From an uncultured Hellea sp. (lineage in GTDB: Bacteria; Pseudomonadota; Alphaproteobacteria; Caulobacterales; Maricaulaceae), in contig CAJQGR010000008.1 of assembly GCA_905477785.1 (NCBI GenBank), positions 4,900 to 68,899 on the forward strand: DNA of 64,000 nucleotides, given 5' to 3'. Under the pieces are notes generated by a model. The model had not been told where the DNA came from and made no database searches. It worked only from the letters and a program-made list of their open reading frames with translations. Every line of letters begins with the position of its first letter. Position 1 is the first letter of the stretch. This document shows positions 2,466 through 64,000 of this stretch, piece by piece. Made by a program: the position numbers and the translations under genes.

Positions 2466-2469
2466 AAAA

Positions 2470-3201: not shown

Positions 3202-3216
3202 ATATTAATTATATTT

Positions 3217-4469: not shown

Positions 4470-4529
4470 ATTTACTTATTTGCCTCTTATGACTTTAGTG
4501 GCAATAGATAAAAAAATAATTCAAACTAA

Positions 4530-5156: not shown

Positions 5157-5191
5157 CTTGCATTAGGAATTTTTAGGACTATTTTAGTTAA

Positions 5192-7318
5192 ATGTCAGAA
5201 TCCTTATTAAGTCAGAAAATCAACGGATCAAATGAGTGGCAACCTCACCGACCAGAAAGACCCGTAAAATCGGAAGGTGGTAAGAAGTTCAGATTAGTAA
5301 GTGATTTCAAACCAGCAGGAGACCAACCTGCGGCAATTGAAGAACTCTGCCAGGGACTTAATCAATTAAATAGGGATCAGGTATTACTTGGCGTAACAGG
5401 ATCAGGAAAAACATTTACAATGGCCAAGATAATAGAGAAACAACAACGACCAGCTTTAATTATGGCGCCTAATAAAACTCTCGCAGCTCAACTCTATTCT
5501 GAATTTAAAAGCTTTTTTCCAGATAATGCTGTCGAATACTTTGTATCTTATTATGATTACTATCAACCCGAAGCTTATGTACCAAGAACGGATACATTCA
5601 TTGAGAAAGATAGTTCGCTCAATGAGCAAATTGATAGAATGAGGCACGCGGCTACAAGGGCCATACTTGAAAGGGATGACTGTATAATTATCGCATCTGT
5701 ATCCTGCATTTATGGTATCGGTTCTGTTGAAACATATACAGAAATGACCATCGACATTGCAAATGGTCAAGAAATTAACCCCAGAGACTTCATCATGCAG
5801 CTAGTTCAATTGCAATATGAAAGGAATGATTTGGCGTTTCAAAGAGGTTCCTTTCGTGTCCGAGGTGATACAATTGAATTATTTCCTGCTCATTATGACG
5901 ATACTGCTTGGAGGTTTGATTTTTTTGGTGATGAAATCGATTCTATTACTGTCTTTGATCCATTAACGGGTAGAAGCAGTAAAAAAATAGAAAATGTTAG
6001 AATTTATGCAAACTCTCATTACGTGACCCCAAGGCCTACAGTACAGTCAGCAATGAAGGGAATTAAAAATGAATTAAAAAATCGCTTGGAATATTACAAC
6101 ACTAACAAAAAATTACTTGAAGCACAAAGAATAGCACAAAGAACTGAATTTGATTTGGAAATGATAGCAGCACAAGGGTTTTGTACGGGTATCGAAAATT
6201 ATTCTAGATACCTAACTGGACGAAACCCTGGCGAACCACCTCCTACTTTATTTGAATACTTACCAGAAAACGCTATTCTTTTTACAGATGAAAGTCATGT
6301 AACTGTTCCGCAAATAGGGGCAATGAGCAAAGGTGATTTTAGTCGAAAATCGACACTCTCTGAACATGGCTTTCGATTGCCAAGCTGTGTGGATAATAGA
6401 CCTCTAAAATTTGAAGAATGGGAGGCTATGCGCCCACAAACCGTGCACGTATCTGCAACACCAGGAAAATGGGAAATGCTACAAACTCAAGGAATATTTA
6501 CTGAACAGGTAATACGTCCTACAGGATTAATTGATCCTCCAGTTGAAATCAGACCCGTATCAACTAACGGGGCAAGTCAAGTAGATGATGTTATTCATGA
6601 AGTCAAAGTGGTTTCAGGTAAGGGGTTTAGATCTTTAATAACGACATTAACAAAAAAAATGGCAGAAGATCTCACTGACTACATGCATGATCAAGGGATT
6701 CGTGTTCGCTATATGCACAGTGATGTTGATACACTTGAACGAATAGAAATAATAAGAGACTTGCGTCTTGGAAAATTTGATGTTTTGATTGGCATTAACT
6801 TACTTAGAGAGGGCTTGGATATACCCGAATGTGCATTTGTTGGTATTTTAGATGCAGACAAGGAAGGCTTTCTCAGAAGCGAAACATCATTAGTTCAAAC
6901 CATTGGTAGGGCAGCTAGAAATAGTGAAGCCAAGGTGGTGCTTTATGGCGATCGCGTTACAGGTTCAATGCAAAGGGCCATAGATGAAACGGACAGACGC
7001 CGAGCCAGGCAAGTCAAGCATAATGAGTTAAATAATATTACGCCTAAAACGGTGCTTCGAGGAGTGGCTGATACAGTTGGGGATAGTCAGGATGCACAGA
7101 AAATCAAGGATGAAGCAAATCGCTTTACTCCAACAGGGCAAATTAAAAAGAAATACATAAAAGATTTCGATAATTTTTCTGATTTCAAGGGAGGCAATAA
7201 TATTATTGCTGTAATGGCTGATATTGAAAAGCAAATGTTCAAAGCCGCAGAAAATTTAGAGTTTGAAAAAGCTGCAAAATTAAGGGATGAGCTAGAGAAG
7301 CTCAGAATTGATACTTAA
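5192..7318 (+). CDS. uvrB: Excinuclease ABC subunit B
   Basis: LGVTGSGKT Walker [11 protein letters not shown] beta-hairpin, DESH, GRAARN, C-terminal UVR coiled coil. Confidence 0.98.
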
Positions 7319-7338
7319 AAAATATATGCATAAATATT

Positions 7339-8097
7339 CTATCTTTTAATTAAGCCAATATCAGTATTACAAAGCTTATCCCAGAAACGGAAATACAGTC
7401 CATAATTACCTTTGAAATTAGTATGATGAAGATTATGATGACTAGCAGTAATAATATTTTTGCCCCACGAACCTTCAATCCATTTTTGAGGGTATATTTC
7501 CCATCCAGCATGGTTAAAAATAGCATTTACTGTCATAATCATCAGTAAAGCAAATGCTGCATATATATGGATTGGCACTAAAAGTGCCAGAACAGGTAAA
7601 AGCCAAGCAGCACTAAAAGCCTCCAACGGATCAAAAGAAAAACTAGCCCATGGTGTCGGTTGAATAGATTTATGATGCCCAGAATGCATCCATTTAAAAA
7701 GAGTTTTTTTATGCATCAACCTGTGTGTCCAATAGAACCATGCATCTTGAACGAATAGGTATATAAACATACTTAAAATAACCCAAAACCAACCATTCAT
7801 GCCTTCAGGTACTCCAGAATAGATTGCAGTACCGCCATATTTCCACATCTCCAAAACCACAGCAGTTGGTGCAGCATATATAAAAGAGCTAATTAAAGAG
7901 AGTTTGATCTCATGTTTTATAGTTTTAGGGTTAGGGGGAGACTTTGATAATTTAAAAGCATTTTTAAAATAAAATTTACTGTTCCACAGCATCCAATGCA
8001 AAGGGCCAACAATTAAAAAATACCTCAACTGAATGATAAAAGTTAAGGCTATATAAGTAATTAGTAACTGATGTGGCGCTTCTAACAAGGTCTCCAT
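7339..8097 (-). CDS. Sterol desaturase / fatty acid hydroxylase family membrane di-iron enzyme
   Basis: His boxes YWTHRLMH, HSGHH and HHNLHH; NYGLYFRFWDKL tail. Confidence 0.9.
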   Translation of the reverse strand: METLLEAPHQLLITYIALTFIIQLRYFLIVGPLHWMLWNSKFYFKNAFKLSKSPPNPKTIKHEIKLSLISSFIYAAPTAVVLEMWKYGGTAIYSGVPEGMNGWFWVILSMFIYLFVQDAWFYWTHRLMHKKTLFKWMHSGHHKSIQPTPWASFSFDPLEAFSAAWLLPVLALLVPIHIYAAFALLMIMTVNAIFNHAGWEIYPQKWIEGSWGKNIITASHHNLHHTNFKGNYGLYFRFWDKLCNTDIGLIKR

Positions 8098-8241
8098 AGA
8101 TAGAATATAATTTAGTTAAGTGTATTATGTAAACATCCTTTTCACTTTATATAAAGTCTAGTTATTATCTAATATAATTAATAGAAAAATTTGGATAATT
8201 TAAAGTTTGACGGTATCAATCTAAAGAGCTTAAATTAATCT

Positions 8242-9729
8242 ATGGAAAATATTATAATCGCTATAGACCAAGGTACAACAAGTTCACGTACATTAGTATT
8301 TTCATTAACAGGTGAAACTTTATTTGTAGCACAAGAAGAGTTTCCTCAGCTTTATCCTAAAGATGGCTGGGTTGAACATAATCCGGAAGATATTTGGAAT
8401 AGCACATTAAACACCTTAAAGTTAGCTTATGAGTTTATCAAAGAAAATACATATGGGATTACCGGCTTAGGCATTACCAACCAACGTGAAACAACAATCC
8501 TGTGGGATAAACTTACAGGAGAGCCGATATATAATGCAATTGTTTGGCAAGATCGTAGGACTGCCAAAATCTGTGAAGAAATCAAGCTTAATTATTCTGA
8601 CAATGAGTTGAACTCAAAAACAGGTCTCCTTATTGACCCTTACTTTAGTAGTACTAAAATTTCTTGGATATTAGATAATGTCAAAGGAGCAAGAGAAAAG
8701 GCAGTTAAAGGAGAACTTGCCTTTGGAACCATTGATACTTTTTTAATATGGCGCCTTACTAAAGGTAAATCTCACTATACTGATGCCACTAATGCAAGCC
8801 GAACAAATCTATTTAATATTCATAATCAAACATGGGATAAAGACTTACTCAAATTATTCAAAGTGCCTGTAAATGTTTTACCTACAGTAAAAAACTCAGC
8901 AGATAATTTTGGACATATAGATTTTTCGATTTTAGGAGAAAGCATTCCAATATTTAGTGCTATTGGCGATCAGCAGGCAGCAGCTGTCGGTCAAAATTGT
9001 TTTGTTAAGGGGGATATAAAAAGCACATATGGGACTGGTTGTTTTGTAATTCTTAATACGGGAGAAGAATGTGTTAAATCTAAAAATAATCTCATCTCAA
9101 CAATATGTTACAGACTAAATGGGAAAGTGACTTATGCCCTAGAAGGATCAATATTTATCGCAGGGGCAGCTGTGCAGTGGCTAAGAGATGGAATTAAGAT
9201 CATCAAAACGGCATCAGATGTAGAGCCGCTTTGCGGCAAGCATAATACAAATAGGGGTGTCTACCTTGTTCCTGCCTTTACTGGACTAGGCGCTCCTCAC
9301 TGGGACCCTAATGCACGCGGTGCCTTGTTTGGTATTACAAGAGATACAGGAAGGGAGGATATAGCGAGAGCAGCAATTGAATCAACATGCTATCAAACAT
9401 ATGACTTGATAAAAGCAATGTCAGATGACGGTATAGCATCGAATTCTATGCGAGTTGATGGAGGTATGGTGGAAAACCAATGGATGGTTCAATTCCTATC
9501 AGACATACTTGACATTCCCATAGAATGCCCATCTTCAAAAGAAACAACAGCATTAGGGGCTGCTTATTTAGTAGGGTTGCAAGCTGGTATTTATAAATCA
9601 TTAGATGATATAAAAAAACATATTAGAATAAATAGACATTATTCCCCAAAAATGGGCAATGAAGAAAGAACAAAACTCCTCAACGGATGGGTAAATGCTG
9701 TAAAAAGAGTATTATCAAATTACCCTTGA
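8242..9729 (+). CDS. glpK: Glycerol kinase
   Basis: AIDQGTTSSR, ITNQRETT, VWQDRRT, TDATNASRT, GDQQAA, KSTYGTG, DGG motifs. Confidence 0.97.
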   Translation: MENIIIAIDQGTTSSRTLVFSLTGETLFVAQEEFPQLYPKDGWVEHNPEDIWNSTLNTLKLAYEFIKENTYGITGLGITNQRETTILWDKLTGEPIYNAIVWQDRRTAKICEEIKLNYSDNELNSKTGLLIDPYFSSTKISWILDNVKGAREKAVKGELAFGTIDTFLIWRLTKGKSHYTDATNASRTNLFNIHNQTWDKDLLKLFKVPVNVLPTVKNSADNFGHIDFSILGESIPIFSAIGDQQAAAVGQNCFVKGDIKSTYGTGCFVILNTGEECVKSKNNLISTICYRLNGKVTYALEGSIFIAGAAVQWLRDGIKIIKTASDVEPLCGKHNTNRGVYLVPAFTGLGAPHWDPNARGALFGITRDTGREDIARAAIESTCYQTYDLIKAMSDDGIASNSMRVDGGMVENQWMVQFLSDILDIPIECPSSKETTALGAAYLVGLQAGIYKSLDDIKKHIRINRHYSPKMGNEERTKLLNGWVNAVKRVLSNYP

Positions 9730-9835
9730 ATGATAGAAAGACAAAATATCGCAAAAAATAGTCAGTCATTTAATATGAATCTAAAAAAGAATATGATAAA
9801 GAAATGTTCAATCAAACGAAATAGAACAACATTAC

Positions 9836-11347
9836 ATGCTTCCTGATTCAAACATTAAAAACATAGTTATTGTGGGCGGAGGTACTGCAGGGTGGATGAC
9901 AGCTGCGGCTATATCGCGCCTGCTTAACCACCCAGAGATTAAAATAAATTTGATCGAGTCAGATACCATTGGCACAGTTGGAGTTGGCGAAGCAACAATA
10001 CCGCATTTAAGATTCTTTAATCAATTACTTGGTTTGCATGAAGATGACTTTGTGAAGAAAACTAATGCTACTTTTAAATTGGGTATTGAATTCGTCAACT
10101 GGGATAAAATTGGAAAAAGTTATATTCACCCCTTTGGGCCATATGGGGTGCCAATGGGAGGCTTGCGGTTTCACCATTACTGGCTGAGACAAAAACAGAT
10201 GGGAAGCCAAATTCCAATTGATGATTATAATTTACAAATAATGGCAGCTAAAGCAGGTAAATTTCATAGACCACAGAATATAAAAAAATCGCCACTCAGC
10301 ACTATAGATTATGCCTTTCATTTTGACGCTACACTATATGCAAAATACATGCGAGAATTCTCAGAAAAAAATGGAGTTAATCGCATAGAGGGTAAAATTG
10401 TCAAATGTCATCAAAATTCTAAAAACGGTTTTATTGAAAACGTACAACTCGAAAATGGCCAAATAATACAGGGAGATTTATTTTTTGACTGCTCCGGCTT
10501 TAGAGGATTGTTAATTGAGCAAACATTAGAGACTGGATATAGTGACTGGTCTAATTATTTACCCTGCAACAGTGCAGTAGCTCAAGCAAGTGAAAAAGCT
10601 GAAGATCCAATACCATACACAAAAGCCACAGCTAAAGAGGCTGGTTGGCAATGGCGTATTCCTTTACAATCGCGAACAGGTAATGGACATGTCTATTGTA
10701 ACGATTATATTTCTGATGAGGAGGCCTTGAAAAGCTTACATAAAGGCATGGATAGTAATCCAATTGGCATTCATAAACAGTTACGGTTTAAAACTGGAAT
10801 CAGAAAAAAAACTTGGAATAAAAATGTTATTTCATTAGGATTAGCAGCCGGTTTCTTAGAGCCTTTAGAGTCTACTTCAATCCATCTTATTCAAACTGCA
10901 ATAGCTCGTTTAATGACAAATTTTCCCGATAAACACTTCAATGAAGCAGATATAAATTATTATAATCAAAGGACTCTACTAGAATATGAACAAGTCAGAG
11001 ATTTTTTAATACTACATTATAAAGCAACCGAACGAGACGATACTCCATTTTGGAATTATTGTAGAAATATGCAAATACCAAATACTCTAAAAGAGAGAAT
11101 GAATATTTACATGGAAAACGCGAGACTTTATCGTCATGATAACGAATTGTTTGGCGACGCTAGCTGGTTTGCAGTTATGCATGGACAAAATATGCATCCA
11201 CAAAGGTTTCATCCAAATGCTAATATAATGCCTGATGCTGAATTAGATAAACGTATGTCTGAAATCCATAAAACCTGGGCGGCTTGCTTGGATACATTGC
11301 CAACTCATCAAGAATACATTGATCAGCACTGTAAATCAAATATCTGA
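9836..11347 (+). CDS. Flavin-dependent (tryptophan-halogenase-like) protein 1
   Basis: VGGGTAGW, VGVGEAT, ATFKLGIEFVNW (PrnA K79-equivalent Lys), GWQWRIP (WxWxIP), GFLEPLESTS. Confidence 0.93.
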   Translation: MLPDSNIKNIVIVGGGTAGWMTAAAISRLLNHPEIKINLIESDTIGTVGVGEATIPHLRFFNQLLGLHEDDFVKKTNATFKLGIEFVNWDKIGKSYIHPFGPYGVPMGGLRFHHYWLRQKQMGSQIPIDDYNLQIMAAKAGKFHRPQNIKKSPLSTIDYAFHFDATLYAKYMREFSEKNGVNRIEGKIVKCHQNSKNGFIENVQLENGQIIQGDLFFDCSGFRGLLIEQTLETGYSDWSNYLPCNSAVAQASEKAEDPIPYTKATAKEAGWQWRIPLQSRTGNGHVYCNDYISDEEALKSLHKGMDSNPIGIHKQLRFKTGIRKKTWNKNVISLGLAAGFLEPLESTSIHLIQTAIARLMTNFPDKHFNEADINYYNQRTLLEYEQVRDFLILHYKATERDDTPFWNYCRNMQIPNTLKERMNIYMENARLYRHDNELFGDASWFAVMHGQNMHPQRFHPNANIMPDAELDKRMSEIHKTWAACLDTLPTHQEYIDQHCKSNI

Positions 11348-11452
11348 TCAACATAATAATTTTTAATCAAACCCGTATAGCATAAGCACTATTCGTTCAT
11401 TAGTTTTGTTCATTATTTTTATGATCTTAATCTATTACTCATAAAATTTTAC

Positions 11453-11481
11453 AAAAAAAATGGAGGGACAAGCCCTCCATT
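11453..11481 (-). terminator. Rho-independent terminator of the TonB-dependent receptor gene
   Basis: Stem ATGGAGGG-ACAAG-CCCTCCAT (11460-11480) next to an A8 run that reads as a U-tract on the minus strand, about 20 nt after the stop. Confidence 0.85.
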
Positions 11482-11501
11482 ATTCATTAATAATTTTTAT
11501 A

Positions 11502-14500
11502 TTAGAACTGATACCTTAGACCAACTCTAATACGTCTATCTCCAACAAAACTAGTTCTCCCGAAGCGTTGACCATCAGCAGAAATTTGCTGCGATGCCTT
11601 AGCCTTTGTATCTAGAATATTGGCGACCTGGACACGGAACTGCAAGTTATCATTAAAGTCATACTTTGCAGATGCATCAAGATAACCTCTTTCCTCCTGG
11701 ATAATAGGAGCGCCTGTTACATAATCACGATACGAGCTCAAATACTCTGACCTCCAGTTATATGCTAGTCTAAATTCAAACTGCTCATCTTGATATATAC
11801 CAATCAAGTTAGCAGAGTGATCAGATAGGCCTAAGAAATCCTGCACACCAAAACGATATATTCTTTCGAATGAGTCAGGAATACCATCGTTATTTGCATC
11901 TGCAATCGCGGCTGGTGGGTTAGTCTTAGCCTCAATATAAGTATAGTTAGCTTGCAATCCTAAGTTTGAAAATAAACCAGGCAGATCATCAAAGAACTGA
12001 GTATAGGCAACTTCAAATCCTTGAATTTCAGCTTCATCTTGGTTTAGATCACCATTAAATACAACAGGAACTTCTACACCATCCAGTGTTTCGGTACCAA
12101 TAGTTTGCGAAGCATAGACTATATTGTTTTTGATATTTTTCTTGAAAAGTGAAAGTGTAAATGAGTTGTCATCACCAAAGTAATGCTCATATGACACATC
12201 AAAATTCCATGATGTAATCGCTTCAAGATCCGGGTTACCACCATAAATACTGATTTGCTGAGGTGTTATGGCTTGTATAATGCCGGGAACTACAGAGTCG
12301 TCCACATCATAACCGAGGTTAGCAACTGCAACCTGGTCAGCTCTTAACTGAGCAACATTTGGACGCGTAATACCCTTACTCACACCGAAACGAATTAAGG
12401 CTTCATCATTAAGGTTCCATTTAGCATTAAAAGACGGAAGCCAGTAATCGGTTGTATTAAACTCACCGTCAAACTGCGTATCCGCTTGGTCAAAATAAGC
12501 AACAGTTCCAGGAGCAAAAATTGCTTCATTGGCACCTGTTATATTTATATAATCAACCCCGCCTGTTCCTTTAACATCAGTAGATGTGTAACGAATACCT
12601 ACGTTACCATCAATTGACATACCATTATTAAACTCATTGCCAAAATCTAATTTTGCGTAGAAATCTTGAGTTTTCTCTTGAATTGATCCAATTAGGCCTC
12701 GGTTATCATAATCAACAACTCCATTAACACGCAGAGGCTGCCAATCACCTATTTGTGGATTACCAGCTGCATTTACTCCAGTACCAAGCAATGCTTCGCC
12801 TTGAAGCGATGAAACCCAAGCATCATAGTTTTGCAACAGAGCTCTATCTACAAATAGTACGGATGTATTGTTACCTACAACTGTGTCGCCGCGGAAGAAA
12901 TCAGTAAAATCTACTTCTTCGTATCCACCTTGAGTCAAGTCGGCCATTGGCATATATCCACCAGCCCAAGGAGCGGCAACAGATGCCCAGTTCAAACCCG
13001 CTGAGCGGTTTGTCTGGTCACGCTCAGCAATTCGCGCGCCAAATTCGATTGAGTCAAACCAACCGTCGCCGTCAAATTCATACTCAACATCGGCTTTAAC
13101 CGCGTACATGTCACCTTCATTATCATTAAACTCATCTGCTGAGAAAAGAAGGTAAGCATTTCTTGGGTCGTTGAGAGCGTCTGTTGCTGATGCCTGACCT
13201 CCTGTTCTTGTCAAATACGGGTTACTCGCAGCGCCTATAAGCTCAACTTGCGGGTTATCCAAATCTGGGTTTATTGTGAAGTCTGAGAAGAAACGTGTAC
13301 CGCCCCAGAGACGTTCTTTTGTAAATTCAGCAGTAGTCTTGTGTGCATCAATATTGATAAACAAACGCTCAGATGGCTGCCATTTAATATTTAGTGACAT
13401 ATCATCTGTTACTGAACGATCTTTTTGGTGTATTGCAAGGTTTGTGAAATTGGCACCGTTGGAACCAGTCCAATCACGTAGGTTGTTTGAAATTACACCC
13501 GTTTCATAAAGTCCGGTAATGGAATATGTATTTTCACAAACAAAGTTTGGATCATTAGCGCCATTACATGATGGAATATCTGCAGAAAAAGGGGTAGTTG
13601 TAAACCCAGGTGCTATGTTAGTTAGGTTGCCTGGAGGGTTACCTGGGAAAAAGCTTTCACCATCTGGAAAGAATTCTAATGTTCTCTCGTCCTGGTCTAC
13701 ACTGTTTTCGATACGCGCAAATTTAGCTGTAGCTTTAAAAGTGCCATCATTATTTTGCCACTGGCCAGCTACGTAGTAACTGTCTCGGCCTCTATCAACT
13801 TCGTTTGTACGAAGCTGAAAACCACCCGGAACACCTATTAGTTCACTTGAACCTGCAGCTACAGGAATCGGAAGAAGTTGACCCACTTGGAAACCATGTA
13901 AGTCTGACTGTAATTCTGATGATGAGAATGATGCGAGTAAACCGAACTCTCCATTTGTACTATCCCAGCGGTTACTGGCGATTACGCTGTAATCTGGGCT
14001 CCACTCGTTGCGAAGGTCAGTATAAGTGCCATCTATTGATGCAGACATAAAAGATCCTGTCTTATCAAATGGCTCAAGTGAACGAAGATTAATGGTACCA
14101 CCAATACCACCTTGGATAAGGTCAGCTGAAGCGTTTTTGTAAACATCAACAGCGCCTATTAATTCTGGAGGAACAGTACCAAAATCTAAAGAACGACCGC
14201 CATTAGCAGAAAAAGCATCTCTACCATTAAATTCAGAACGTACTAAAGTAAGACCCCGAATAAGGTTGCCTCCGCCTTCAGGTGAAGGGAAGTCACCTTG
14301 GCTTCCTCCTAAACCAAAACGCTGAACAACAACACCAGGAACTCGGGCTAATGCCTCAGCAACTGATAGATCAGGTAGTGCACCAACGTCCGAAGCCGTA
14401 ATAGAGTCAACAGCTGTATCAGCATTTCTCTTGAGGTCTCTTGCAGTCTTGATAGCTTGACGAATACCCGTCGCAACTACTTCACCTTCTTCCTCTACAT

Positions 14501-14642
14501 ATGTTTCCTCTGCTGTAGCTGAAGATGTATCTTCCTGCGCATACACGGGTGACATTAAACCAAAGCTTGCAACTAATGCTGTTGTTCCCAACAACGCTAG
14601 CTTATTTAGACGCTCTACTGACGCATTAATATTAGAATTCAC
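11502..14642 (-). CDS. TonB-dependent receptor (Caulobacter/Xanthomonas carbohydrate-uptake type)
   Basis: Signal peptide, EVVATG TonB box, plug motifs DSITASDVGALPDLSVAEALARVPGV and IDVYK/GGIGGTINL, C-terminal Phe (LRYQF). GTG start with AAGGGAG RBS. Confidence 0.95.
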   Translation of the reverse strand: MNSNINASVERLNKLALLGTTALVASFGLMSPVYAQEDTSSATAEETYVEEEGEVVATGIRQAIKTARDLKRNADTAVDSITASDVGALPDLSVAEALARVPGVVVQRFGLGGSQGDFPSPEGGGNLIRGLTLVRSEFNGRDAFSANGGRSLDFGTVPPELIGAVDVYKNASADLIQGGIGGTINLRSLEPFDKTGSFMSASIDGTYTDLRNEWSPDYSVIASNRWDSTNGEFGLLASFSSSELQSDLHGFQVGQLLPIPVAAGSSELIGVPGGFQLRTNEVDRGRDSYYVAGQWQNNDGTFKATAKFARIENSVDQDERTLEFFPDGESFFPGNPPGNLTNIAPGFTTTPFSADIPSCNGANDPNFVCENTYSITGLYETGVISNNLRDWTGSNGANFTNLAIHQKDRSVTDDMSLNIKWQPSERLFINIDAHKTTAEFTKERLWGGTRFFSDFTINPDLDNPQVELIGAASNPYLTRTGGQASATDALNDPRNAYLLFSADEFNDNEGDMYAVKADVEYEFDGDGWFDSIEFGARIAERDQTNRSAGLNWASVAAPWAGGYMPMADLTQGGYEEVDFTDFFRGDTVVGNNTSVLFVDRALLQNYDAWVSSLQGEALLGTGVNAAGNPQIGDWQPLRVNGVVDYDNRGLIGSIQEKTQDFYAKLDFGNEFNNGMSIDGNVGIRYTSTDVKGTGGVDYINITGANEAIFAPGTVAYFDQADTQFDGEFNTTDYWLPSFNAKWNLNDEALIRFGVSKGITRPNVAQLRADQVAVANLGYDVDDSVVPGIIQAITPQQISIYGGNPDLEAITSWNFDVSYEHYFGDDNSFTLSLFKKNIKNNIVYASQTIGTETLDGVEVPVVFNGDLNQDEAEIQGFEVAYTQFFDDLPGLFSNLGLQANYTYIEAKTNPPAAIADANNDGIPDSFERIYRFGVQDFLGLSDHSANLIGIYQDEQFEFRLAYNWRSEYLSSYRDYVTGAPIIQEERGYLDASAKYDFNDNLQFRVQVANILDTKAKASQQISADGQRFGRTSFVGDRRIRVGLRYQF

Positions 14643-14735
14643 TATTTTCTCTCCCTTATTGCCAAAAAGGCATACTTCTTTGTGAAGTAATAATTGCAGT
14701 TAATTTATATAACTTTATTAATACTTAAGCGTAAT

Positions 14736-14751
14736 TTGACAGCGCTGTCAA
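14736..14751. promoter_or_regulatory. LacI-type operator, copy 1 (TTGACAGCGCTGTCAA)
   Basis: Perfect 16-bp palindrome with an AnCGnT centre, in the divergent receptor/halogenase intergenic region. The same core recurs at 19446-19461. Confidence 0.8.
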
Positions 14752-14940
14752 TTACCTTTCATTAAATATTAGTTGCTATAAGATGACAGATTTATGGAAA
14801 TCATTTTTAATAAGTATTGATATCAATGCGCGCATTTGGCACGTTGTAAATCTAAACTAAAAGATAACCTATGAATTCAATTTTGATTGTAAATACATAA
14901 CGCAACAGCCCAACAACATCCAGTACAAGGAGCAAATGTT

Positions 14941-16443
14941 TTGAAAATTGAGAAAATTTGTATCGTGGGCGGCGGCACAGCGGGGTGGATGTCAGCAGCT
15001 GGTTTATCTAATAAATTCAGTGATTTAGGGATATCTATAGAACTCGTAGAGTCAGATAAAATTGGTACAGTAGGCGTCGGAGAGGCCACCCTTCCACATA
15101 TAAGGTACTTTAATAATTCTTTGGGAATAAATGAAAAGGATTTTATGCTGGCTACCCGAGCTACATTTAAACTGGGAATAGAATTTTGCGATTGGGGCAA
15201 AATTGGAGACCAATATGTGCATCCCTTTGGTGACTACGGAATACCTATTGATAACATTGAATATCATCATTTTTGGTTAAGACTGTTGCAGAAAGGGCAC
15301 AAGTCTAGACTTTGCGATCACTCTTTTCCAGTCTTAGCAGCCGAATCTGGGAAATTCCAACACCCGCAAGGTGATAACAATGAAATTGGCTCTAACTTTG
15401 GGTATGCATATCAATTTGATTCGGGCCTTTATGCTAAATTTTTGAGGAAATATTCTGAGGCTAGGAATGTCATAAGAACAGAAGGCCGAGTTACAGAAGT
15501 TCTCCAAAACCATGAGAACGGAAACATCACCTCGATACTATTGGAAGACGGGTCTACGATTGAAGCAGATATTTTTATAGATTGTTCAGGTTTCAGAGGC
15601 CTACTTATAGAGCAAACACTAAAGACAGGTTATGAGGACTGGAGTAACTGGCTCCCTTGTAACAAAGCCGTTGCCGTTCAATGTGAACAAGAAGGGCCTA
15701 GCCTTCCCTACACCAGGGCAACAGCTAGAACAGCAGGATGGCAATGGCGTATACCGCTTCAGCATAGAACAGGTAATGGATATGTATACTGGGATAAATA
15801 CATTTCAGATGATGAGGCAACACATCAGCTACTGAGCACATTAGAAGGAAGGGCAATAACAGAGCCAAAACAGCTTTTCTTTAAAACAGGGAAAAGAAAA
15901 AAATTATGGCAAAAAAATGTAATAGCGATTGGTTTGTCAGGGGGGTTCATGGAACCCTTAGAATCCACTTCAATTCACCTTATTCAAGAGGGTATAACCT
16001 CACTAATAGAGCTCTTTCCTGATAAATCTTTTCCTGAAAGCGATATAGAAGAGTACAATCGCCGTATGAATTTAAACTTTGATAGAGTTCGTGATTTCTT
16101 GCTTCTGCACTATGTAGCAACGCAGCGAGATGATAGTGATATGTGGAACTATTTTCGCAATATGACCTTACCATCAAGCCTAAAAGATAAAATCACAGCG
16201 TGGAACAATAGAGGATATTTAACTAAATACGAACACGGCGTATTCCACCCACCCAGCTGGTTGGCAGTGATGGCGGGTCAAAATTTAATGCCAAAATCTT
16301 ATGATATTAGGGCAAATCGTATCGATTATAATATCATTAAATCAAAATTAGACTCCATAAGAAATGACAATAGAATAGCTGTTAAAAATACACCGGAGCA
16401 TGCTTCATATTTACAAGAATATGGCGCTAGCATAGTTAAATAA
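14941..16443 (+). CDS. Flavin-dependent (tryptophan-halogenase-like) protein 2
   Basis: VGGGTAGW, ATFKLGIEFCDW, GWQWRIP, GFMEPLESTS. TTG start with AGGAG 8 nt upstream. Confidence 0.93.
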   Translation: MKIEKICIVGGGTAGWMSAAGLSNKFSDLGISIELVESDKIGTVGVGEATLPHIRYFNNSLGINEKDFMLATRATFKLGIEFCDWGKIGDQYVHPFGDYGIPIDNIEYHHFWLRLLQKGHKSRLCDHSFPVLAAESGKFQHPQGDNNEIGSNFGYAYQFDSGLYAKFLRKYSEARNVIRTEGRVTEVLQNHENGNITSILLEDGSTIEADIFIDCSGFRGLLIEQTLKTGYEDWSNWLPCNKAVAVQCEQEGPSLPYTRATARTAGWQWRIPLQHRTGNGYVYWDKYISDDEATHQLLSTLEGRAITEPKQLFFKTGKRKKLWQKNVIAIGLSGGFMEPLESTSIHLIQEGITSLIELFPDKSFPESDIEEYNRRMNLNFDRVRDFLLLHYVATQRDDSDMWNYFRNMTLPSSLKDKITAWNNRGYLTKYEHGVFHPPSWLAVMAGQNLMPKSYDIRANRIDYNIIKSKLDSIRNDNRIAVKNTPEHASYLQEYGASIVK

Positions 16444-16445
16444 TA

Positions 16446-17936
16446 ATGAATAATTCTAACATAAAAAATATTATCATATGTGGAAATGGATTAGCTGGTG
16501 TAATAACTACAGCAGCACTGGCCAAGGCACTGCCAAAGGAAACCAAATTAACGTTAATAGATACCCTCTGCACTCACGAAAAAGATATATTTTACGGAAA
16601 TGTAACATCAACATCAACTTACGCATTTTTACTAAGTTTGGGCATAACTGAAATTGAACTATTAACCCAAAGCAACACGTCTTTTTCATTAGGAACACAT
16701 TATTTAGACTGGGGCGAGGAAAAAAATTCATGGTATCAATGCCATCATCAACCTCTACCCCTGATACAAGGAGTAATGTTTCACCACTATTTAAATCGAA
16801 TCACCGCCAAATTCCCAGAGCAATCAGCTATAGGTCCCTATATTATGTCTGTGTGTGCAGCTAATAAAGGGGTTTTTGCCCACCCATCAAAAGACCCTAA
16901 AAATCCCTTAAAAAATATAGAATATGGTTATCATTTTCATCCTGCTGAATTACGAAAAATAATAGGTAGAAAATTAGATAACTGGGATATAAATATAGAA
17001 AAAGGAAGCATAAAATCCATCGAAAAATCTAATGGAGAAATTAAATCTTTAACATTATCCAATGGCGCTAATATATCAGGTGATTTTTTTATTGATTGCA
17101 CTCAGGGTAATTTAGGAATTTATGATAAGCGTATTAATTTTGGACATAATCGTACACTCAAAGCGGTAGAGAATATTTCACCTCATAACGAGATAATCGG
17201 CTCTTGTAGAAAAGTTCATGGCAATATTGAAAAATGGAAATCACAAACATTTTTACAAGATAAACTTCAAATACTTAATATAAGTGAGATATCCAACAAA
17301 AAAGATAATGATACTGAATCACGAACTCATCACTCAACCGGTGTTACCATTACCACTGGTTTTTCTGAAAATCCCTGGATAAATAATTGTCTTAGATTAG
17401 GACATAGTGCAGCTGTATTATCACCATTAACACCAGCACCCATTATGCTTTTACAAAATGATGTTAAGAGGATGTTGGAGCTAATTCCAATTTCGCACGA
17501 TATGAAAATTGAAGCTAAAGAATATAACCGCCGTTTCACAGAGGATTATATTCACGCATCTACATTCGAGAGTGCATTTCAACCCGCCCAGACCATTATA
17601 AAAAAAGAAAGCTATGAAAACAAAATTGAAGAACTAATTTATGATAAACTTAAAAATAAAATAATGCAATTTAAGAGTAGAGGCATTGTTCTGCAATATG
17701 ACCTTGAACCATTCAACAATGAGGACTGGATCCAGATACATTTGGGTATGAAACGCATACCAAAAAGGTATGACGCATTAGCAGATAGGCTCGATGAAAC
17801 TCAGCTCATAGAAACACTAAAAAACATCAAAAAAAATAATTTTATAATATCAGAAAAAATACCCCCACTTAACAAATACATCACAGGATTGATAAAATAT
17901 CTCAGGAAGCAGAATGACAAAGTCCAATCAAAATAA
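16446..17936 (+). CDS. Degenerate tryptophan-halogenase-like protein 3 (predicted catalytically inactive)
   Basis: Full length and collinear with its neighbours (ICGNGLAG, YGYHF, GDFFIDCT). FKLGI is FSLGT, WQWRIP is WKSQTF and FLEPLES is VLSPLTP. Confidence 0.8.
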   Translation: MNNSNIKNIIICGNGLAGVITTAALAKALPKETKLTLIDTLCTHEKDIFYGNVTSTSTYAFLLSLGITEIELLTQSNTSFSLGTHYLDWGEEKNSWYQCHHQPLPLIQGVMFHHYLNRITAKFPEQSAIGPYIMSVCAANKGVFAHPSKDPKNPLKNIEYGYHFHPAELRKIIGRKLDNWDINIEKGSIKSIEKSNGEIKSLTLSNGANISGDFFIDCTQGNLGIYDKRINFGHNRTLKAVENISPHNEIIGSCRKVHGNIEKWKSQTFLQDKLQILNISEISNKKDNDTESRTHHSTGVTITTGFSENPWINNCLRLGHSAAVLSPLTPAPIMLLQNDVKRMLELIPISHDMKIEAKEYNRRFTEDYIHASTFESAFQPAQTIIKKESYENKIEELIYDKLKNKIMQFKSRGIVLQYDLEPFNNEDWIQIHLGMKRIPKRYDALADRLDETQLIETLKNIKKNNFIISEKIPPLNKYITGLIKYLRKQNDKVQSK

Positions 17937-19431
17937 TATAAAAAATATAGTTATTGTAGGCGGAGGCTCAGCGGGCTGGATGACAGCTGCCGCTTTATCA
18001 AGCATGTTAAGCCCTAATAATGTAAATATTACACTGATTGAGTCAGAACAGATTGGCACTGTGGGAGTTGGAGAGGCAACAATTCCGGATATGTTAAATT
18101 TCAATGCTATGCTGGGGATTGATGAAGCTGAGTTTTTAAAAGCAACAGATGGAACATTTAAACTGGGAATAGAATTTAACAACTGGGGTCGCAAAGGCGA
18201 CTCATATTTTCATCCCTTCGGTAATATTGGCGTAGATATGCAAGGGATTGACTTCCATCAATTTTGGCTTCGCTCTAAAGAGGGAGGCAGTACTGCAAAG
18301 TTGCAAGATTATAGTATCTGCGCAGTCGCAAGTGTCGAAAATAAATTTTCTATGCCAGATCAAAACCCAAGATCTTTATTATCTCATTTACGTTATGCAT
18401 ATCATATTGATGCAACCAAATATGCGAAATACTTACGTAATTATGCTGAATTAAGACACGTTAATCGTTTGGAAGGTAAAGTCACTCAAGTAAACCTAGA
18501 CCAAGAAACTGGAAATATAGCCAATCTTCAAATGGAAAGTAAACAAATTATAGAAGGTGATTTCTATTTTGATTGCACTGGGTTTAGGGCTTTACTGTCT
18601 GATGGAGCACTTAAGGTGCCATTTACAGATTGGAGCCACTGGTTACCTTGCGATAGCGCTCAAACTGTAGCAAGCAAACAAAAAGGAGAACTTTTACCCT
18701 ATACGAAAGCCACAGCTAAAACAGCTGGGTGGCAATGGAGAATACCCACCCAACGTAGAACAGGTAACGGGCATATTTATTCAAGTAAATTCATGAGAGA
18801 CACCGATGCAACTGAAGTATTATTAGATGGGATCGACAGTGAACTTATTGGAAACCCACGTAAAATAAGCTTTAAAACTGGTTGTCGTAAAAATTTATGG
18901 AATAAAAACTGTATTTCCATTGGTTTATCAGCAGGCTTTTTAGAGCCATTGGAGTCAACTTCGTTATATCTCATTCAAGTGGGTATTAGTAAATTTATAT
19001 CTCTATTTCCGACAACTGAAGTTTCAGAGGTGGTGAGAAGCGAATATAACAAACAGATGTTAAAAGAATTTCATCAAGTTCGTGATTTTATTATATTGCA
19101 TTATAAAGCAACAGAACGGGATGATAGTGAATTTTGGAATTATTGCAGAAATATGAGTGTTCCGGACAGCTTAAGTGCCAAAGTAGAACTTTTTAGAGAA
19201 GCAGGTAGAGTATTTAGATATGATGATGAATTATTCTCGAAGCCTAGCTGGATCGCAGTTTGCTTAGGGCAGAATATAATACCAAAGAACATTGACCCCA
19301 TAATTTCCTCATTACCGTTTAATCAAGTGCAGCATAGTCTCGACTCCATGCAAAATGCCATGAAAGTTAGTGTAGATAAAATGAAAACTCATGAAGAATT
19401 TATCAAGCATTACAATGCCAGCTCTATATAG
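17914..19431 (+). CDS. Flavin-dependent (tryptophan-halogenase-like) protein 4
   Basis: VGGGSAGW, GTFKLGIEFNNW, GWQWRIP, GFLEPLESTS; overlaps the previous gene by 23 nt. Confidence 0.93.
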   Translation: MTKSNQNNIKNIVIVGGGSAGWMTAAALSSMLSPNNVNITLIESEQIGTVGVGEATIPDMLNFNAMLGIDEAEFLKATDGTFKLGIEFNNWGRKGDSYFHPFGNIGVDMQGIDFHQFWLRSKEGGSTAKLQDYSICAVASVENKFSMPDQNPRSLLSHLRYAYHIDATKYAKYLRNYAELRHVNRLEGKVTQVNLDQETGNIANLQMESKQIIEGDFYFDCTGFRALLSDGALKVPFTDWSHWLPCDSAQTVASKQKGELLPYTKATAKTAGWQWRIPTQRRTGNGHIYSSKFMRDTDATEVLLDGIDSELIGNPRKISFKTGCRKNLWNKNCISIGLSAGFLEPLESTSLYLIQVGISKFISLFPTTEVSEVVRSEYNKQMLKEFHQVRDFIILHYKATERDDSEFWNYCRNMSVPDSLSAKVELFREAGRVFRYDDELFSKPSWIAVCLGQNIIPKNIDPIISSLPFNQVQHSLDSMQNAMKVSVDKMKTHEEFIKHYNASSI

Positions 19432-60146: not shown

Positions 60147-61427
60147 TCAGTCAATGAGCTTGTCGCCTGAACCAAGAACGAGATAGCAAACTCCACCAAT
60201 CACGCTAATTATTGCTGTTACGATGAATACATTTTCATAGGATCCGGTTTGCTGAACAATATAACCAGCGGCAATCGCCCCTATTGCGCCAGCAGCGGTT
60301 CCAAAGGTGTTAAGTGTTCCATAGATAATATCGGCAAAACGCGGCGCAATATCCAGACTATTTGGAACTAGGCCTGCATAAGCGAAAGCTAATATCCCTA
60401 AGGCCGCGCACATCAAGATTGTTGCAGATTTTGCGCTTTCAGCATCTCTCAGAAAGTACATAAATATTGCAGAGCCTAATAAGCCAAAGCCAATTAAAAT
60501 TTTTCGTGTTTTTGTCGCGCTAATGCCAGTTTTCAGCATGTAATCTGCAACCCAGCCGGTCACATTCATCATGAGAAACATGACAATCCAAGGCAGCACT
60601 GCATATATCCCTGCCCCAGCGAGGTCGAGCTTATGTACATCGGAGAAGTAACTGGGAAGCCAGGATAGAAAAATATACAGCGTCCATGAAGCCGCAAAGC
60701 CTGTAATGCAAAGTGCCCAAACAGGCTTTGCTAAGAAGATTTCCTTCCAGGGGATAACTTTAGCTTTTTCTTTTACACCGCCCCCAGCCGCGATAATTGT
60801 TCTTTCATAGCTCGTAATCGATGGATGCTGATCCGGGTGTTCCTTTATCAAAAAATACCAAAAGATTGCCCAAATGAATCCCAAAGCTCCAAAGGCGTAA
60901 AAAATCATTTCCCAGCCATAAGTCGTTACAATCTTGGGGCCTAACAAAAGTGCGCCAACGGTTCCGAGAATCGTTCCAGAAGAAAGAAAGCTCATAACTC
61001 GAGATTGCTCTGTCTGAGGGAACCAACGTCCAACTACCGTAAAAGAAGACGGAGCTAGGCCAGCTTCACCAACACCCATCAGGAATCGTACGGCCAGTAA
61101 AGCGGGAATGGACATGAATGCCGCTATTGGCGTTATTAATGTGAAGACTGACCAAAAAACGACGGCCCAGCCAAGAACAAGTTTACCTCCAAATCGATTG
61201 GCGAGATAACCACCGCCAATTTGCATGCACAAATAACCCCAAAAAAAGAAGCTAAAGACATACCCTTTATCAACATCAGACCAGCCAAATTCCTTTTGCA
61301 TGCTGATGGCGGCAATCGAAATGTTTACGCGGTCAAGGTAGCAAATGACGAATGCAAAAAATGCTAAAACCAATACCGTCATACGTTTTGGCCAGAACGG
61401 CTTTTGCGTGTTTATTTCCGCTCCCAT
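60147..61427 (-). CDS. MFS transporter, anion:cation symporter (ACS/SLC17-like) family
   Basis: ICYLDRVNISIA, GGYLANRFGGK, RFLMGVGEA, RWFP..E, WLPSYF. ATG 61427 has an AAGGGG RBS; the ORF-track extension to 61775 overlaps the divergent gene. Confidence 0.92.
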   Translation of the reverse strand: MGAEINTQKPFWPKRMTVLVLAFFAFVICYLDRVNISIAAISMQKEFGWSDVDKGYVFSFFFWGYLCMQIGGGYLANRFGGKLVLGWAVVFWSVFTLITPIAAFMSIPALLAVRFLMGVGEAGLAPSSFTVVGRWFPQTEQSRVMSFLSSGTILGTVGALLLGPKIVTTYGWEMIFYAFGALGFIWAIFWYFLIKEHPDQHPSITSYERTIIAAGGGVKEKAKVIPWKEIFLAKPVWALCITGFAASWTLYIFLSWLPSYFSDVHKLDLAGAGIYAVLPWIVMFLMMNVTGWVADYMLKTGISATKTRKILIGFGLLGSAIFMYFLRDAESAKSATILMCAALGILAFAYAGLVPNSLDIAPRFADIIYGTLNTFGTAAGAIGAIAAGYIVQQTGSYENVFIVTAIISVIGGVCYLVLGSGDKLID

Positions 61428-61574
61428 AAATTCCCCTTTTTGCGCTACTCTATTAGAGCACGCTTCTGAAAGCTTATCAAATTGGGCACTTATACTGTCT
61501 GCGAGGCCTAATTCTCTAATATAGAATTGACAATTGCAGCTTGACGGCTCTTTTAAGACAAGTAGAGAATTTAT

Positions 61575-62663
61575 ATGTACAATGCCAAGCCTAATTTTAG
61601 CGATGATTATCAAGAGTCGCGCGCCAAGTTTCTTGCCGCGATGAGCAAACGAGGCGAGGTGATTTCCATTCGGCATCCTAAAAAAGGTCCGGACGGTCAA
61701 GACCTCTATCTCGATTTTGGTATAATTGGTCCGGACGACGCCCGAGGCGCGCTTATTTTGATTAGTGGCACTCACGGTCCTGAAATATTTGCTGGCTCAG
61801 GCCCACAAGCAGCACTCCTAAATTCAGGGCTAATCAATGATTATGCGGATCTCCGCGTTATTCTGGTCCACGCTCATAACCCTTATGGTTGTGCGTGGTT
61901 GCGGCGCACAGACCACAACAATATTGACCTTAATCGTAATTATTACGATTTCTCCAAACCCTTCATCCCGCATCCTGGCTATGACGTGTTGCGTCCGGTC
62001 ATGGTGCCCACTGAGTGGGATTCAGTCGCACTCGGTAAGGGCTTGGCGGATTATGAGGCCCAACATGGTAAGGTTGGATTGCTTGCCGCCATGGTCACGG
62101 GCCAAAGCCACGATCCGGATGGAATGTTTTTCCGTGGCGAGGGCCCGGCTTGGTCGCACATTCAAATGAAAGATGTGCTACCGAAACTAACAAAAACGCA
62201 AGACATTGTTAGCGTCATAGATTTCCATACTGGGCTAGGTCCTTATGGTGTACCCTATATGGTACACGGATACGAACCTGGCTCGTCGGAATTCATCGCG
62301 TTTAAAAAAGCCTACGAGGGGGAAGTTCGTTCGACCATGGACCCGGCGGATATTGACGAGGATCTCCCCGGCTCCCCCGAAGGCCCCATTGTCTTGGGAA
62401 TGAAGGCCTTGCTGCCCGGAAAACAGAGTTACGCTGTAGTCATCGAATACGGCACAGTACCACCGGAACAGGTCTTTGGTACACTGATGCATGACAATTG
62501 GATGCATGCCCACGGCACGCCGGGGACCGACGAATGGAACGCGGTGAAACAGAATGTGCGAGAAGTTTTTTATCCGCGTGAGGATAAGTGGAAAGACATG
62601 ATCTGGGAGCGGGCCGTCTGGGCCGTTGAGCGCTCGGCAAAACTGGCGCGCGGCGAATTTTAA
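61575..62663 (+). CDS. DUF2817 / M14-like zinc metallohydrolase
   Basis: SGTHGPE (HxxE), HNPYG...RR, NIDLNRNY, IDFHTGLG, IEYGT. Confidence 0.85.
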   Translation: MYNAKPNFSDDYQESRAKFLAAMSKRGEVISIRHPKKGPDGQDLYLDFGIIGPDDARGALILISGTHGPEIFAGSGPQAALLNSGLINDYADLRVILVHAHNPYGCAWLRRTDHNNIDLNRNYYDFSKPFIPHPGYDVLRPVMVPTEWDSVALGKGLADYEAQHGKVGLLAAMVTGQSHDPDGMFFRGEGPAWSHIQMKDVLPKLTKTQDIVSVIDFHTGLGPYGVPYMVHGYEPGSSEFIAFKKAYEGEVRSTMDPADIDEDLPGSPEGPIVLGMKALLPGKQSYAVVIEYGTVPPEQVFGTLMHDNWMHAHGTPGTDEWNAVKQNVREVFYPREDKWKDMIWERAVWAVERSAKLARGEF

Positions 62664-62714
62664 TATATAATCGCCGTATTAGTCGGCCAGGCAGGTGTCC
62701 TGTCAATTCACCCC

Positions 62715-63836
62715 TTAACTGCGCATTCTTTTACCCTTGGGATCAAAAAACGAATAACCTTTTAAGACCTCGGCTCCGACAATTCCGTCTTCGGTCTTTA
62801 TGCGAACTTTCCCGTCTGTGATCAGATTTTTGTGGTTCTTAGCAAAGGAAATCCCAATAGTTTTATCCAATATGTGACTGTAGTGCACAGACGGCATTTT
62901 TCCGACTTCTTCGTCGCCGGCCATCATTATTCCGGCAGGCGAAATGGCACACTTTCCTTGGGTTTGAAAGCGCACAAGCCGTCTCTCTGGCGTATTGTTT
63001 TCAAGGGCCTTTAAGGCATCTTCGCCGACAAACCCTGTGTGACCGCGGTCCCAGGTAAAACTCATTCCGGCTTCGAATAAATTGGCTGTCCCATCAATAT
63101 CATGGCCGGGAATGATATGACCTTTTTCCAGACGTAATACTGACATACCCATGATAGCGGTGGGTTTTGCGCCGTAAAGTTCGCCCGCACCGCGGAGTTT
63201 GTTCCAAATTTTCACGGCCTCACCTGATGGAACGTGGAGTTCAAATCCTAATTCACCCAAGAATCCGATCCGCAAGACCCGGCAGGGAACATTCGCGATG
63301 TCCATGTCTTTGATACGCATAAAGCGAAAGGCATCTTTGGAAATATCGCCCTCGGTGATGGCGCTTAGAATTTCCCGAGCTTTTGGCCCGGCTAGATTGA
63401 TAGCGGCAAAGTCATGAGATTGGTCCGCGATTTGGTAATCGAAGCCGGCCTCGCTACAGTGTTTTGTGATCCAGTCTTGGAAGGTTGCACTACGGCCCGT
63501 ACTTGTCATCAGATAAAATTCGTTGTCTGATCGGCGGCTGACCACGCCGTCGTCGATGCCGCAGCCATTTTCGTCAAGAAGGACAAAGTGCGTGACATGG
63601 CCAGGTTTCAGATCCTCCACACTTTTGGGGATGACACGCCCAATCGCTTTGGCCGCGTCTTTACCGGTAATGGAAAACTTCCCAAAACTTGAGCTGTCCA
63701 TAATAATGGCGCTTTCGTGAGCTGTGGCGGCTTCCATTTCTGGATCGCCGAAAATAGCAATGCGTTCCCATTCTCCAAATGTTGCGGCAATGCCGCCAGC
63801 TTCCAACTGAATGTCGTGTAAAGGTGTTCGTTTCAT
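62715..63836 (-). CDS. Stand-alone aminomethyltransferase (GcvT-like) protein
   Basis: MKRTPLH, D.SSFGKF.ITG.DA, DDGVV.R...NEFYLMT, AINLAGPKAR, RIGFLGELGFELH, LRLEKGH, FFDPKG.R. Start moved to ATG 63836. Confidence 0.88.
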   Translation of the reverse strand: MKRTPLHDIQLEAGGIAATFGEWERIAIFGDPEMEAATAHESAIIMDSSSFGKFSITGKDAAKAIGRVIPKSVEDLKPGHVTHFVLLDENGCGIDDGVVSRRSDNEFYLMTSTGRSATFQDWITKHCSEAGFDYQIADQSHDFAAINLAGPKAREILSAITEGDISKDAFRFMRIKDMDIANVPCRVLRIGFLGELGFELHVPSGEAVKIWNKLRGAGELYGAKPTAIMGMSVLRLEKGHIIPGHDIDGTANLFEAGMSFTWDRGHTGFVGEDALKALENNTPERRLVRFQTQGKCAISPAGIMMAGDEEVGKMPSVHYSHILDKTIGISFAKNHKNLITDGKVRIKTEDGIVGAEVLKGYSFFDPKGKRMRS

Positions 63837-64000
63837 GACGGGTTCAATTCCTTTTCCAGTGAATAGGTCCTTTCTTTTAAGTCGATCAGCATTCAAGATA
63901 GAAAATCTCGCGATTGAATAAAACTCATAACGTAAAGATAAGTATTCAATTCGAAGAATTCTCATATCTGGGGTCACAACAAAGGGATGAAATATGAGCG

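Follow-up and report, generated by a model that had tools for sequence, protein, structure and literature searches.

The window considered here is a stretch of 64,000 nucleotides from an uncultured Hellea sp. (contig C8, positions 4900-68899), the genome of which comprises 1.83 Mb in 92 contigs, has 37% GC and is 97%-complete. Near the right-hand end of the window lie genes for a transporter of the major facilitator superfamily (MFS1), a DUF2817 protein (DUF2817-A) and a GcvT-like protein, the last facing a second DUF2817 gene (DUF2817-B) that crosses the window edge; the genes beyond were read over another 17 kb, up to the end of the contig (locus L002). An initial annotation of the window had proposed that import, hydrolysis and demethylation, catalyzed by the first three of these proteins, together feed the neighbouring 2-hydroxy-acid operon. 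The evidence described below, in which gene identities, synteny, phylogeny and conserved catalytic motifs are directly supported, tilts modestly towards another arrangement, i.e. two modules rather than one three-step pathway: an MFS1/DUF2817-A entry pair belonging to an as yet uncharacterised catabolic acyl-CoA supercluster that is widespread in the sea, and an inserted GcvT-like/DUF2817-B fragment. The features concerned are as follows.

60147-61427, minus strand: MFS1, predicted SLC17/ACS-type organic-anion importer, 426 residues (Pfam MFS_1, E 2e-55; NCBIfam 2.A.1.14 models)
61474-61489, plus strand: conserved box TTATCAAATTGGGCAC in the MFS1/DUF2817-A spacer, the sole conserved block in the aligned spacers of 6 lineages
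61575-62663, plus strand: DUF2817-A, predicted cytoplasmic M14-like zinc hydrolase, 362 residues (PF10994, E 5e-84)
62715-63836, minus strand: GcvT-like protein, 373 residues from an internal ATG (GCV_T, E 9e-62), convergent with DUF2817-A
63912-63951, minus strand: inverted repeat AATTGAATA-N22-TATTCAATC in a ~60-nt block, within the 157 bp that separate the GcvT-like gene from DUF2817-B
63994-65079, plus strand: DUF2817-B, 361 residues (PF10994, E 6e-89), divergent from the GcvT-like gene (the window ends at 64000; L002 6894-7979)

MFS1 and DUF2817-A in the acyl-CoA supercluster

Related loci were recovered from nine lineages (the window together with L115, L004, L009, L010, L011/12, L020 from a Henriciella metagenome-assembled genome, L116, the P0085 locus and L117). 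The comparison loci are mostly metagenome contigs of unknown taxonomy. A search of genome contigs with a single protein returned one locus only, that of the Henriciella assembly. In every DUF2817-A context recovered, i.e. in 9/9 lineages, MFS1 is divergent from DUF2817-A, and an MFS1 orthologue of 55-85% identity opens the gene set in each case; DUF2817-A itself has ~24 orthologue clusters at 56-78% identity. The usual order after DUF2817-A is MaoC1, ACAD2, AraC, (TetR), MaoC2 and Paa-like genes. The core of the supercluster consists of MaoC, ACAD, AraC, TetR and a Paa-like di-iron oxygenase, with an ACAD, an FMN-dependent 2-hydroxy-acid oxidase, an Ior fusion and a CoA-transferase as frequent additions. 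FMN_dh-Ior genes stand behind MFS1 in six of the nine lineages. In the window, MFS1 is co-oriented with the downstream ACAD-FMN_dh-Ior-thioesterase-CoA-transferase genes, from the first of which (ACAD1) it is separated by 196 bp. These observations support the view that MFS1/DUF2817-A is a conserved entry module of the supercluster, including its 2-hydroxy-acid/Ior operon.

Some of the related loci have features of their own. A gene for a YeiH-type membrane protein (Cons_hypoth698, PF03601), absent from the window locus, follows MFS1 in three of them (L009 7561-8568, L116 5548-6567 and L117 5538-6548). The L010 copy (1069-18004) contains many transposase genes (DDE_3 and rve, in several copies) and an MFS1 cut to 263 residues, and looks decayed or mobile.

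The spacer between the divergent MFS1 and DUF2817-A genes is 147 bp long. Its conserved box, TTATCAAATTGGGCAC, occurs once in the island, the sole other match having three mismatches and lying inside a gene; the box probably serves the two divergent genes as an operator or promoter.

The closest solved relatives of MFS1 are sialin and VGLUT (SLC17, E 4e-64) and E. coli DgoT, with E values ranging from 4e-64 to 3e-46 over these carriers of TC family 2.A.1.14. The top-scoring NCBIfam models are likewise those of the 2A0114 family, TIGR00893 and TIGR00894; MFS1, however, scores below the family cut-offs (234 and 282 bits versus 395 and 626, respectively). Its description as an organic-anion-type MFS in the initial annotation agrees with these top matches, and its placement on the operon strand is borne out. 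Translation of MFS1 begins at the ATG at 61427, giving 426 residues, and a protein of the same length was called in an independent assembly. The reading frame (60147-61775, minus strand) stays open for 116 codons 5' of this start (61428-61775) and so overlaps the start of DUF2817-A by 200 nt; the MFS_1 domain begins only at residue 139 of this longer frame, the 5' extension of which is spurious. Automatic calling of the longest open reading frame would therefore mis-annotate MFS1 as a 542-residue protein.

The two DUF2817 proteins of the locus score 283 bits (copy A) and 299 bits (copy B) on PF10994, for which the cut-off is 23. Seven residues are invariant in an alignment of 35 DUF2817 sequences, i.e. 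H67, E70, R111, N120, R121, H218 and E291, and by their sequence context they correspond to the M14 pattern of HxxE...H zinc ligands, an N-R carboxylate clamp and a catalytic glutamate. H67/E70/H218, N120/R121 and E291 are those which we take, from motif position, to be the equivalents of the carboxypeptidase A residues. An AlphaFold2 model of DUF2817-A (pLDDT 92.3) has the alpha/beta fold of M14 carboxypeptidases in addition to these residues, and its top Foldseek matches are carboxypeptidases A/T/B (E 5e-7). The likeness is nevertheless distant, with 11-14% identity, a TM-score of ~0.5 and no Peptidase_M14 Pfam match; no solved close relative of DUF2817-A was found in the structure search, and the literature search found neither a paper on DUF2817 function nor a characterised member. 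The N terminus of DUF2817-A is polar, without a hydrophobic stretch, and forms part of the modelled fold (pLDDT 92), arguing that there is no signal peptide. The divergent M14-like hydrolase without an obvious signal peptide, as first described, thus agrees with both the profile match and the model.

On the basis of its motifs and model, DUF2817-A is most likely a cytoplasmic zinc hydrolase requiring a free carboxylate beside the scissile amide. Since carboxypeptidase A also cleaves O-acyl phenyllactate esters, an ester is a possible alternative scissile bond. Besides the carboxypeptidases, the enzymes that DUF2817-A resembles in fold, zinc ligands, clamp and catalytic glutamate include MpaA (PDB 5hxd) and two deacylases from their clan, AstE and AspA, all three of which are, as predicted for DUF2817-A, cytoplasmic. 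The genomic partners of DUF2817-A differ, however, being genes for an SLC17-type importer and acyl-CoA metabolism rather than for the cell wall or arginine. This strict pairing gives the large DUF2817 family, carried by ~14% of 400 sampled genomes of this class, a testable role, i.e. that of splitting, inside the cell, a conjugate which bears a carboxylate and has been taken up by the importer.

Ancestry of the GcvT-like protein

The GcvT-like protein matches GCV_T (PF01571) over 254 of 255 positions with 209.1 bits (cut-off 25.6), and is borderline on GCV_T_C (25.1 versus 25.9). Its top solved match is the alpha subunit of sarcosine oxidase (SoxA), residues 577-962, with E 5e-41, so confirming the resemblance to the C-terminal folate part of SoxA reported in the initial annotation. 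On the soxA model TIGR01372 it scores 215 bits against a cut-off of 1164 and covers model positions 604-995 only; at 373 residues it falls well short of the ~960-1000 residues of a full-length alpha subunit, which has an N-terminal nucleotide-binding part. A relative with 37% identity (L053) is a 955-residue alpha subunit, the flanking reading frames of which are soxB- and soxG-like in size, one of them weakly matching DAO.

In a tree of 64 rows the GcvT-like protein falls in a clade of eight rows (support 100) with a long stem. This clade is nested within the SoxA-alpha C-terminal clade (SH-aLRT 99), as sister (97) to SoxA-type sequences of Desulfobacterota, and GcvT as well as the genome's own DmdA and DmdA-like proteins lie outside it. 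From its alignment and branching, the GcvT-like protein is assigned as a rare, shortened form of the SoxA alpha subunit in which only the folate domain is left. Its rarity is apparent from a search of 5.8 billion protein clusters, in which only seven other clusters were found at 55-72% identity, below which identity drops to 35% (SoxA-type sequences); a metagenome scan with the clade alignment added one further true member, L051. The literature search found no paper on the clade.

Two members of the clade have an N-terminal extension of ~220 residues with no family match (P0012 residues 1-219, encoded at L005 10001-10657; L051 2080-3031). A weak alignment (E 0.019) links the extension to a portion of the SoxA folate domain. 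It may represent a fused SoxG-like module, positioned immediately behind a second DAO gene.

Other assignments within the GCV_T family were considered and rejected. The protein is not a true GcvT: its scores on GcvT models are 156-176 bits (155.9 on the TIGR00528 equivalog, cut-off 235.85), it lies outside the GcvT clade, and there is no gcvH or gcvP from the window to the contig end. DmdA (PDB 3tfh) and LigM/DesA (5x1i) are, like it, stand-alone GCV_T-family proteins of similar length which use tetrahydrofolate; its scores on the respective models (DmdA NF009133, 95.5 bits versus 410; LigM NF047885, 57.1 versus 580; DesA NF047633, 42.2 versus 800) are, however, far below the cut-offs, and the match to the last two covers part of the domain. 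LigM and DesA were judged by model score and not placed on the tree, on which the GcvT-like protein branches inside SoxA alpha, apart from DmdA. The suggestion that it is a DmdA/LigM-type demethylase is therefore not upheld.

The genome has seven GCV_T-domain genes including the island copy. The other six (L013-L019, on contigs C3, C14, C75 and C77) encode GcvT, DmdA, a DmdA-like paralogue, two full SoxA alpha subunits and a DMGDH-like protein, the gene for the last being cut by a contig end. The true DmdA, on C3, scores 571.6 bits on the model with the 410-bit cut-off and its paralogue 386 bits, just under it; the true GcvT, on C77, scores 338 bits.

The GcvT-like protein keeps the catalytic-type DDG and GELGFE motifs together with all ~130 clade-invariant residues, and these motifs and the GCV_T fold are what it has in common with its top sequence match, the folate domain of heterotetrameric sarcosine oxidase (PDB 2gag/2gah, 1x31); the fold is also seen in dimethylglycine oxidase/dehydrogenase, where the folate domain is fused (1pj5, 4p9s). 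By motif conservation and analogy, it most likely binds tetrahydrofolate and traps one-carbon units. In sarcosine oxidase and dimethylglycine oxidase a flavoprotein oxidises the N-methyl amine and the folate domain traps the one-carbon unit on tetrahydrofolate. The presence of a DAO-family flavoprotein gene beside relatives of the GcvT-like gene recalls that of SoxB beside SoxA, and by this analogy the DAO protein of the relatives would oxidise an N-methyl amine with trapping of the released unit by the GcvT-like protein. Differences from sarcosine oxidase are the absence of ~575 N-terminal alpha residues and of adjoining soxB, soxD or soxG, the association of the relatives with M19 dipeptidase, MMSDH and DUF2817 genes rather than sox genes, and the lack of a partner DAO in this genome. 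As first noted for the window, neither gcvH, gcvP nor soxB/D/G is present there, and the same is now found over the remaining 17 kb of the contig, i.e. no sox or gcv cluster lies just outside the window.

It is also conceivable that the protein acts alone in the manner of DmdA and LigM, taking methyl from a sulfonium, ammonium or methoxy donor and passing it straight to tetrahydrofolate, with an independent origin from the SoxA branch. That it is a single protein of 373 residues, that two of seven clade lineages (the window and L004) have no nearby DAO, and that the aromatic-acid-type transporter (MFS2) and Paa-like oxygenase of the island make methoxy-aromatic acids conceivable would all fit. 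Against this, the LigM and DesA scores are low, we know of no member of the SoxA-alpha branch that transfers methyl groups directly to tetrahydrofolate, and most orthologues adjoin a co-varying DAO (69-73% identity), as expected for an oxidase acting with a folate domain. Of the explanations considered, this is the one to which we give least credence.

The results imply that the SoxA folate domain can exist as a separate small protein, travelling with genes for a dipeptidase, a flavin amine oxidase and MMSDH, and that a stand-alone GcvT-family gene in a marine genome need not encode a DmdA-like demethylase. The clade points to an undescribed marine bacterial route for N-methylated amino compounds.

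The proposed GcvT-like/DUF2817-B fragment and the case for two modules

The neighbours of the GcvT-like gene differ from those of MFS1. Peptidase_M19 lies within about one gene of it in six of seven clade lineages, a DAO-family flavoprotein within three genes in five of seven, and a CoA-acylating MMSDH (554 bits, cut-off 448) nearby in four of seven; Amidohydro_3, EthD, SDR, AMP-ligase, thiolase, MFS and AraC genes also occur in these clusters. The DAO is nearest to ThiO, SolA and SoxB, scoring under all cut-offs, and co-varies with the GcvT-like protein at similar identity (69-73%). A PurU-like Formyl_trans_N gene, a link to one-carbon metabolism, adjoins the cluster in L007 only.

L003 and L007 are informative with regard to the arrangement in the window. 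Their GcvT-like proteins are 68-72% identical to that of the window, and DUF2817-B is 81% and 77% identical to their DUF2817 proteins (52% for that of L005), compared with 35-38% identity to DUF2817-A; from these values, DUF2817-A and DUF2817-B are placed in different orthogroups. In L003 and L007 DUF2817-B is divergent from M19, which is followed by GcvT, whereas in the window it is divergent from the GcvT-like gene directly. A ~60-nt block with AATTGAATA-N22-TATTCAAT sits upstream of M19 in both loci and is kept in the GcvT-like/DUF2817-B spacer of the window, where the core of the inverted repeat matches the L003 and L007 copies at 18/18 and 17/18 positions. The block occurs once in the island and is a putative promoter/operator of the GcvT-like/DUF2817-B pair, distinct from the box between MFS1 and DUF2817-A.

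The GcvT-like gene and DUF2817-B lie between DUF2817-A and MaoC1 in the window, where the closest loci (L009, L010, L116, L117 and the P0085 locus) have nothing. Because MaoC1 directly follows DUF2817-A in these loci, and because the block from upstream of M19 persists in the window spacer, the simplest reading is that the pair is a two-gene fragment of an M19-GcvT-DAO-MMSDH cluster, inserted with its own operator block and with loss of M19 and DAO. A tblastn search of the GcvT-like/DUF2817-B spacer found no M19 remnants.

The distribution of the GcvT-like gene bears directly on whether MFS import, DUF2817 deacylation and tetrahydrofolate-dependent demethylation act in series on one substrate, so feeding the 2-hydroxy-acid/Ior operon, e.g. 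with conversion of 4-dimethylsulfonio-2-hydroxybutyrate (DMSHB) to 4-methylthio-2-hydroxybutyrate (MTHB). Within the supercluster the GcvT-like gene is found in two of nine lineages only (the window and L004), and is absent from seven that keep MFS1, DUF2817-A and, mostly, the Ior operon; its putative operator block is, moreover, unlike the MFS1/DUF2817-A box, and its orthologues stand with M19, DAO and MMSDH genes. The link of transporter to hydrolase proposed initially is thus strengthened by its conservation in all nine lineages, but the GcvT-like step does not share it. The DMSHB variant fares worse: the protein is on the wrong GCV_T branch (inside SoxA alpha, with only 95 bits on the DmdA model), the true DmdA (572 bits) and its paralogue are encoded elsewhere in the genome, and none of the related loci contains sulfur-specific genes. 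In favour of a series are the adjacency of the genes on one island and the presence of M19, DAO or GcvT genes in or beside the supercluster in three of nine lineages, at differing positions, which suggests a shared substrate class. Overall, we regard a serial pathway as unlikely.

The three entries merit separate consideration. M19, DAO or GcvT genes have joined the supercluster three times and at three positions, i.e. in the window, in L004, where M19 and GcvT lie beyond the CoA-transferase, and in the P0085 locus (ENA ERZ26222911), where M19 and DAO are inserted between ACAD1 and MFS1 (no GcvT is present in the 16 kb shown). This recurrence suggests that the set is an optional amine-handling accessory of the supercluster, rather than a matter of pure chance. 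For the same reason a looser version of the initial proposal survives, in that an optional step on the N-methylated amine half of the substrate fits the data.

An alternative is that of an idle passenger: the GcvT-like gene would be a remnant of an amine-catabolic cluster, only part of which was transferred, and, having lost its M19 and DAO partners, would have no role here. The 97%-complete genome has no orthologue of the cluster DAO or M19, there is no island-like continuation on other contigs, and all other lineages of the clade have M19 next to their copy. The open reading frame is intact, however, with every clade-invariant residue kept, and the promoter/operator block is conserved; a 99% identical copy in the same gene order is present in an independent assembly, and L004 likewise has no DAO within 10 kb. 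Loss of function is therefore doubtful in our view, and rather less probable than action in series.

In the two-module arrangement, for which we infer substrates, direction of flux and use of tetrahydrofolate, the SLC17-type MFS1 would import an anionic conjugate, the amide (or ester) bond of which, beside a free carboxylate, would be cut in the cytoplasm by DUF2817-A, with the acid product(s) entering the CoA-dependent genes. The GcvT-like protein would bind tetrahydrofolate and trap a one-carbon unit, as an iminium or formaldehyde, from an N-methylated amine; it would act here as an optional accessory, dealing with the amine half of a conjugate once DUF2817-B has freed it.

Several considerations weigh against this proposal. 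No substrate is known for MFS1, DUF2817 or GcvT-like proteins, and the literature gave no lead as to DUF2817 function. As the genome has no orthologue of the cluster DAO or M19, trapping of a one-carbon unit would have no visible source here. The entries of M19, DAO or GcvT genes at three positions argue that the GcvT-like gene is functionally nearer to the operon than a separate module would be, and all the counts rest on seven to nine lineages, drawn largely from the metagenome contigs described above.

A more speculative possibility, which we consider a long shot on a par with the idle passenger, is that a SoxA alpha subunit reduced to its folate domain, works without its flavoprotein and has as its partner a metallohydrolase, which is M19 in six lineages and DUF2817-B in the window. 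It would then serve as a one-carbon-trapping accessory for an N-methylated or hydroxymethyl-bearing conjugate imported via an SLC17-type carrier, with DUF2817 as the long-missing conjugate amidohydrolase. Pantothenate (pantoyl-beta-alanine) was considered as a substrate and dropped: FMN-dependent 2-hydroxy-acid oxidase is (S)-specific, (R)-pantoate being unfit for it, and nothing else was in support.

The island and the genes to its right

From ~52.5 kb to the contig end the GC content is 42-54%, versus 37% for the genome, and the step at ~52.5 kb may be an island border or a chimeric join. The gene order is identical in an independent metagenome assembly (L115), in which the GcvT-like copy is 99% identical; the arrangement therefore does not stem from faulty assembly of this bin. 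That DUF2817 matches at E 1e-60 or better are absent from the genomes sampled within its family and order fits horizontal acquisition of the island. Other stretches of >45% GC, mostly at contig ends, occur at C14:57000-68186, C33:41000-47124, C29 (whole, 2.8 kb) and C16:7000-10000; they contain no relatives of the island genes or of the M19-DAO cluster genes, and no continuation of the island. A scan for promoters and terminators gave a result no better than shuffled sequences.

To the right of DUF2817-B the order is MaoC, ACAD, MFS2, AraC, TetR and a second MaoC, beyond which are a Paa-like di-iron oxygenase set with a ferredoxin and then a thiolase/DUF35/MaoC trio. The oxygenase set (L002 13531-16460, equivalent to window positions 70631-73560) comprises PaaA, FeS_assembly_P, PaaB, Zn_ribbon_PaaD, PaaC and Fer2 genes. 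True phenylacetate catabolism was rejected, the PaaA-like subunit scoring 88 bits on the PaaA equivalog versus a cut-off of 280, and the set is probably an undescribed acyl-CoA oxygenase. No other protein of the supercluster is as conserved as its PaaA-like A subunit, which is 83-96% identical between lineages.

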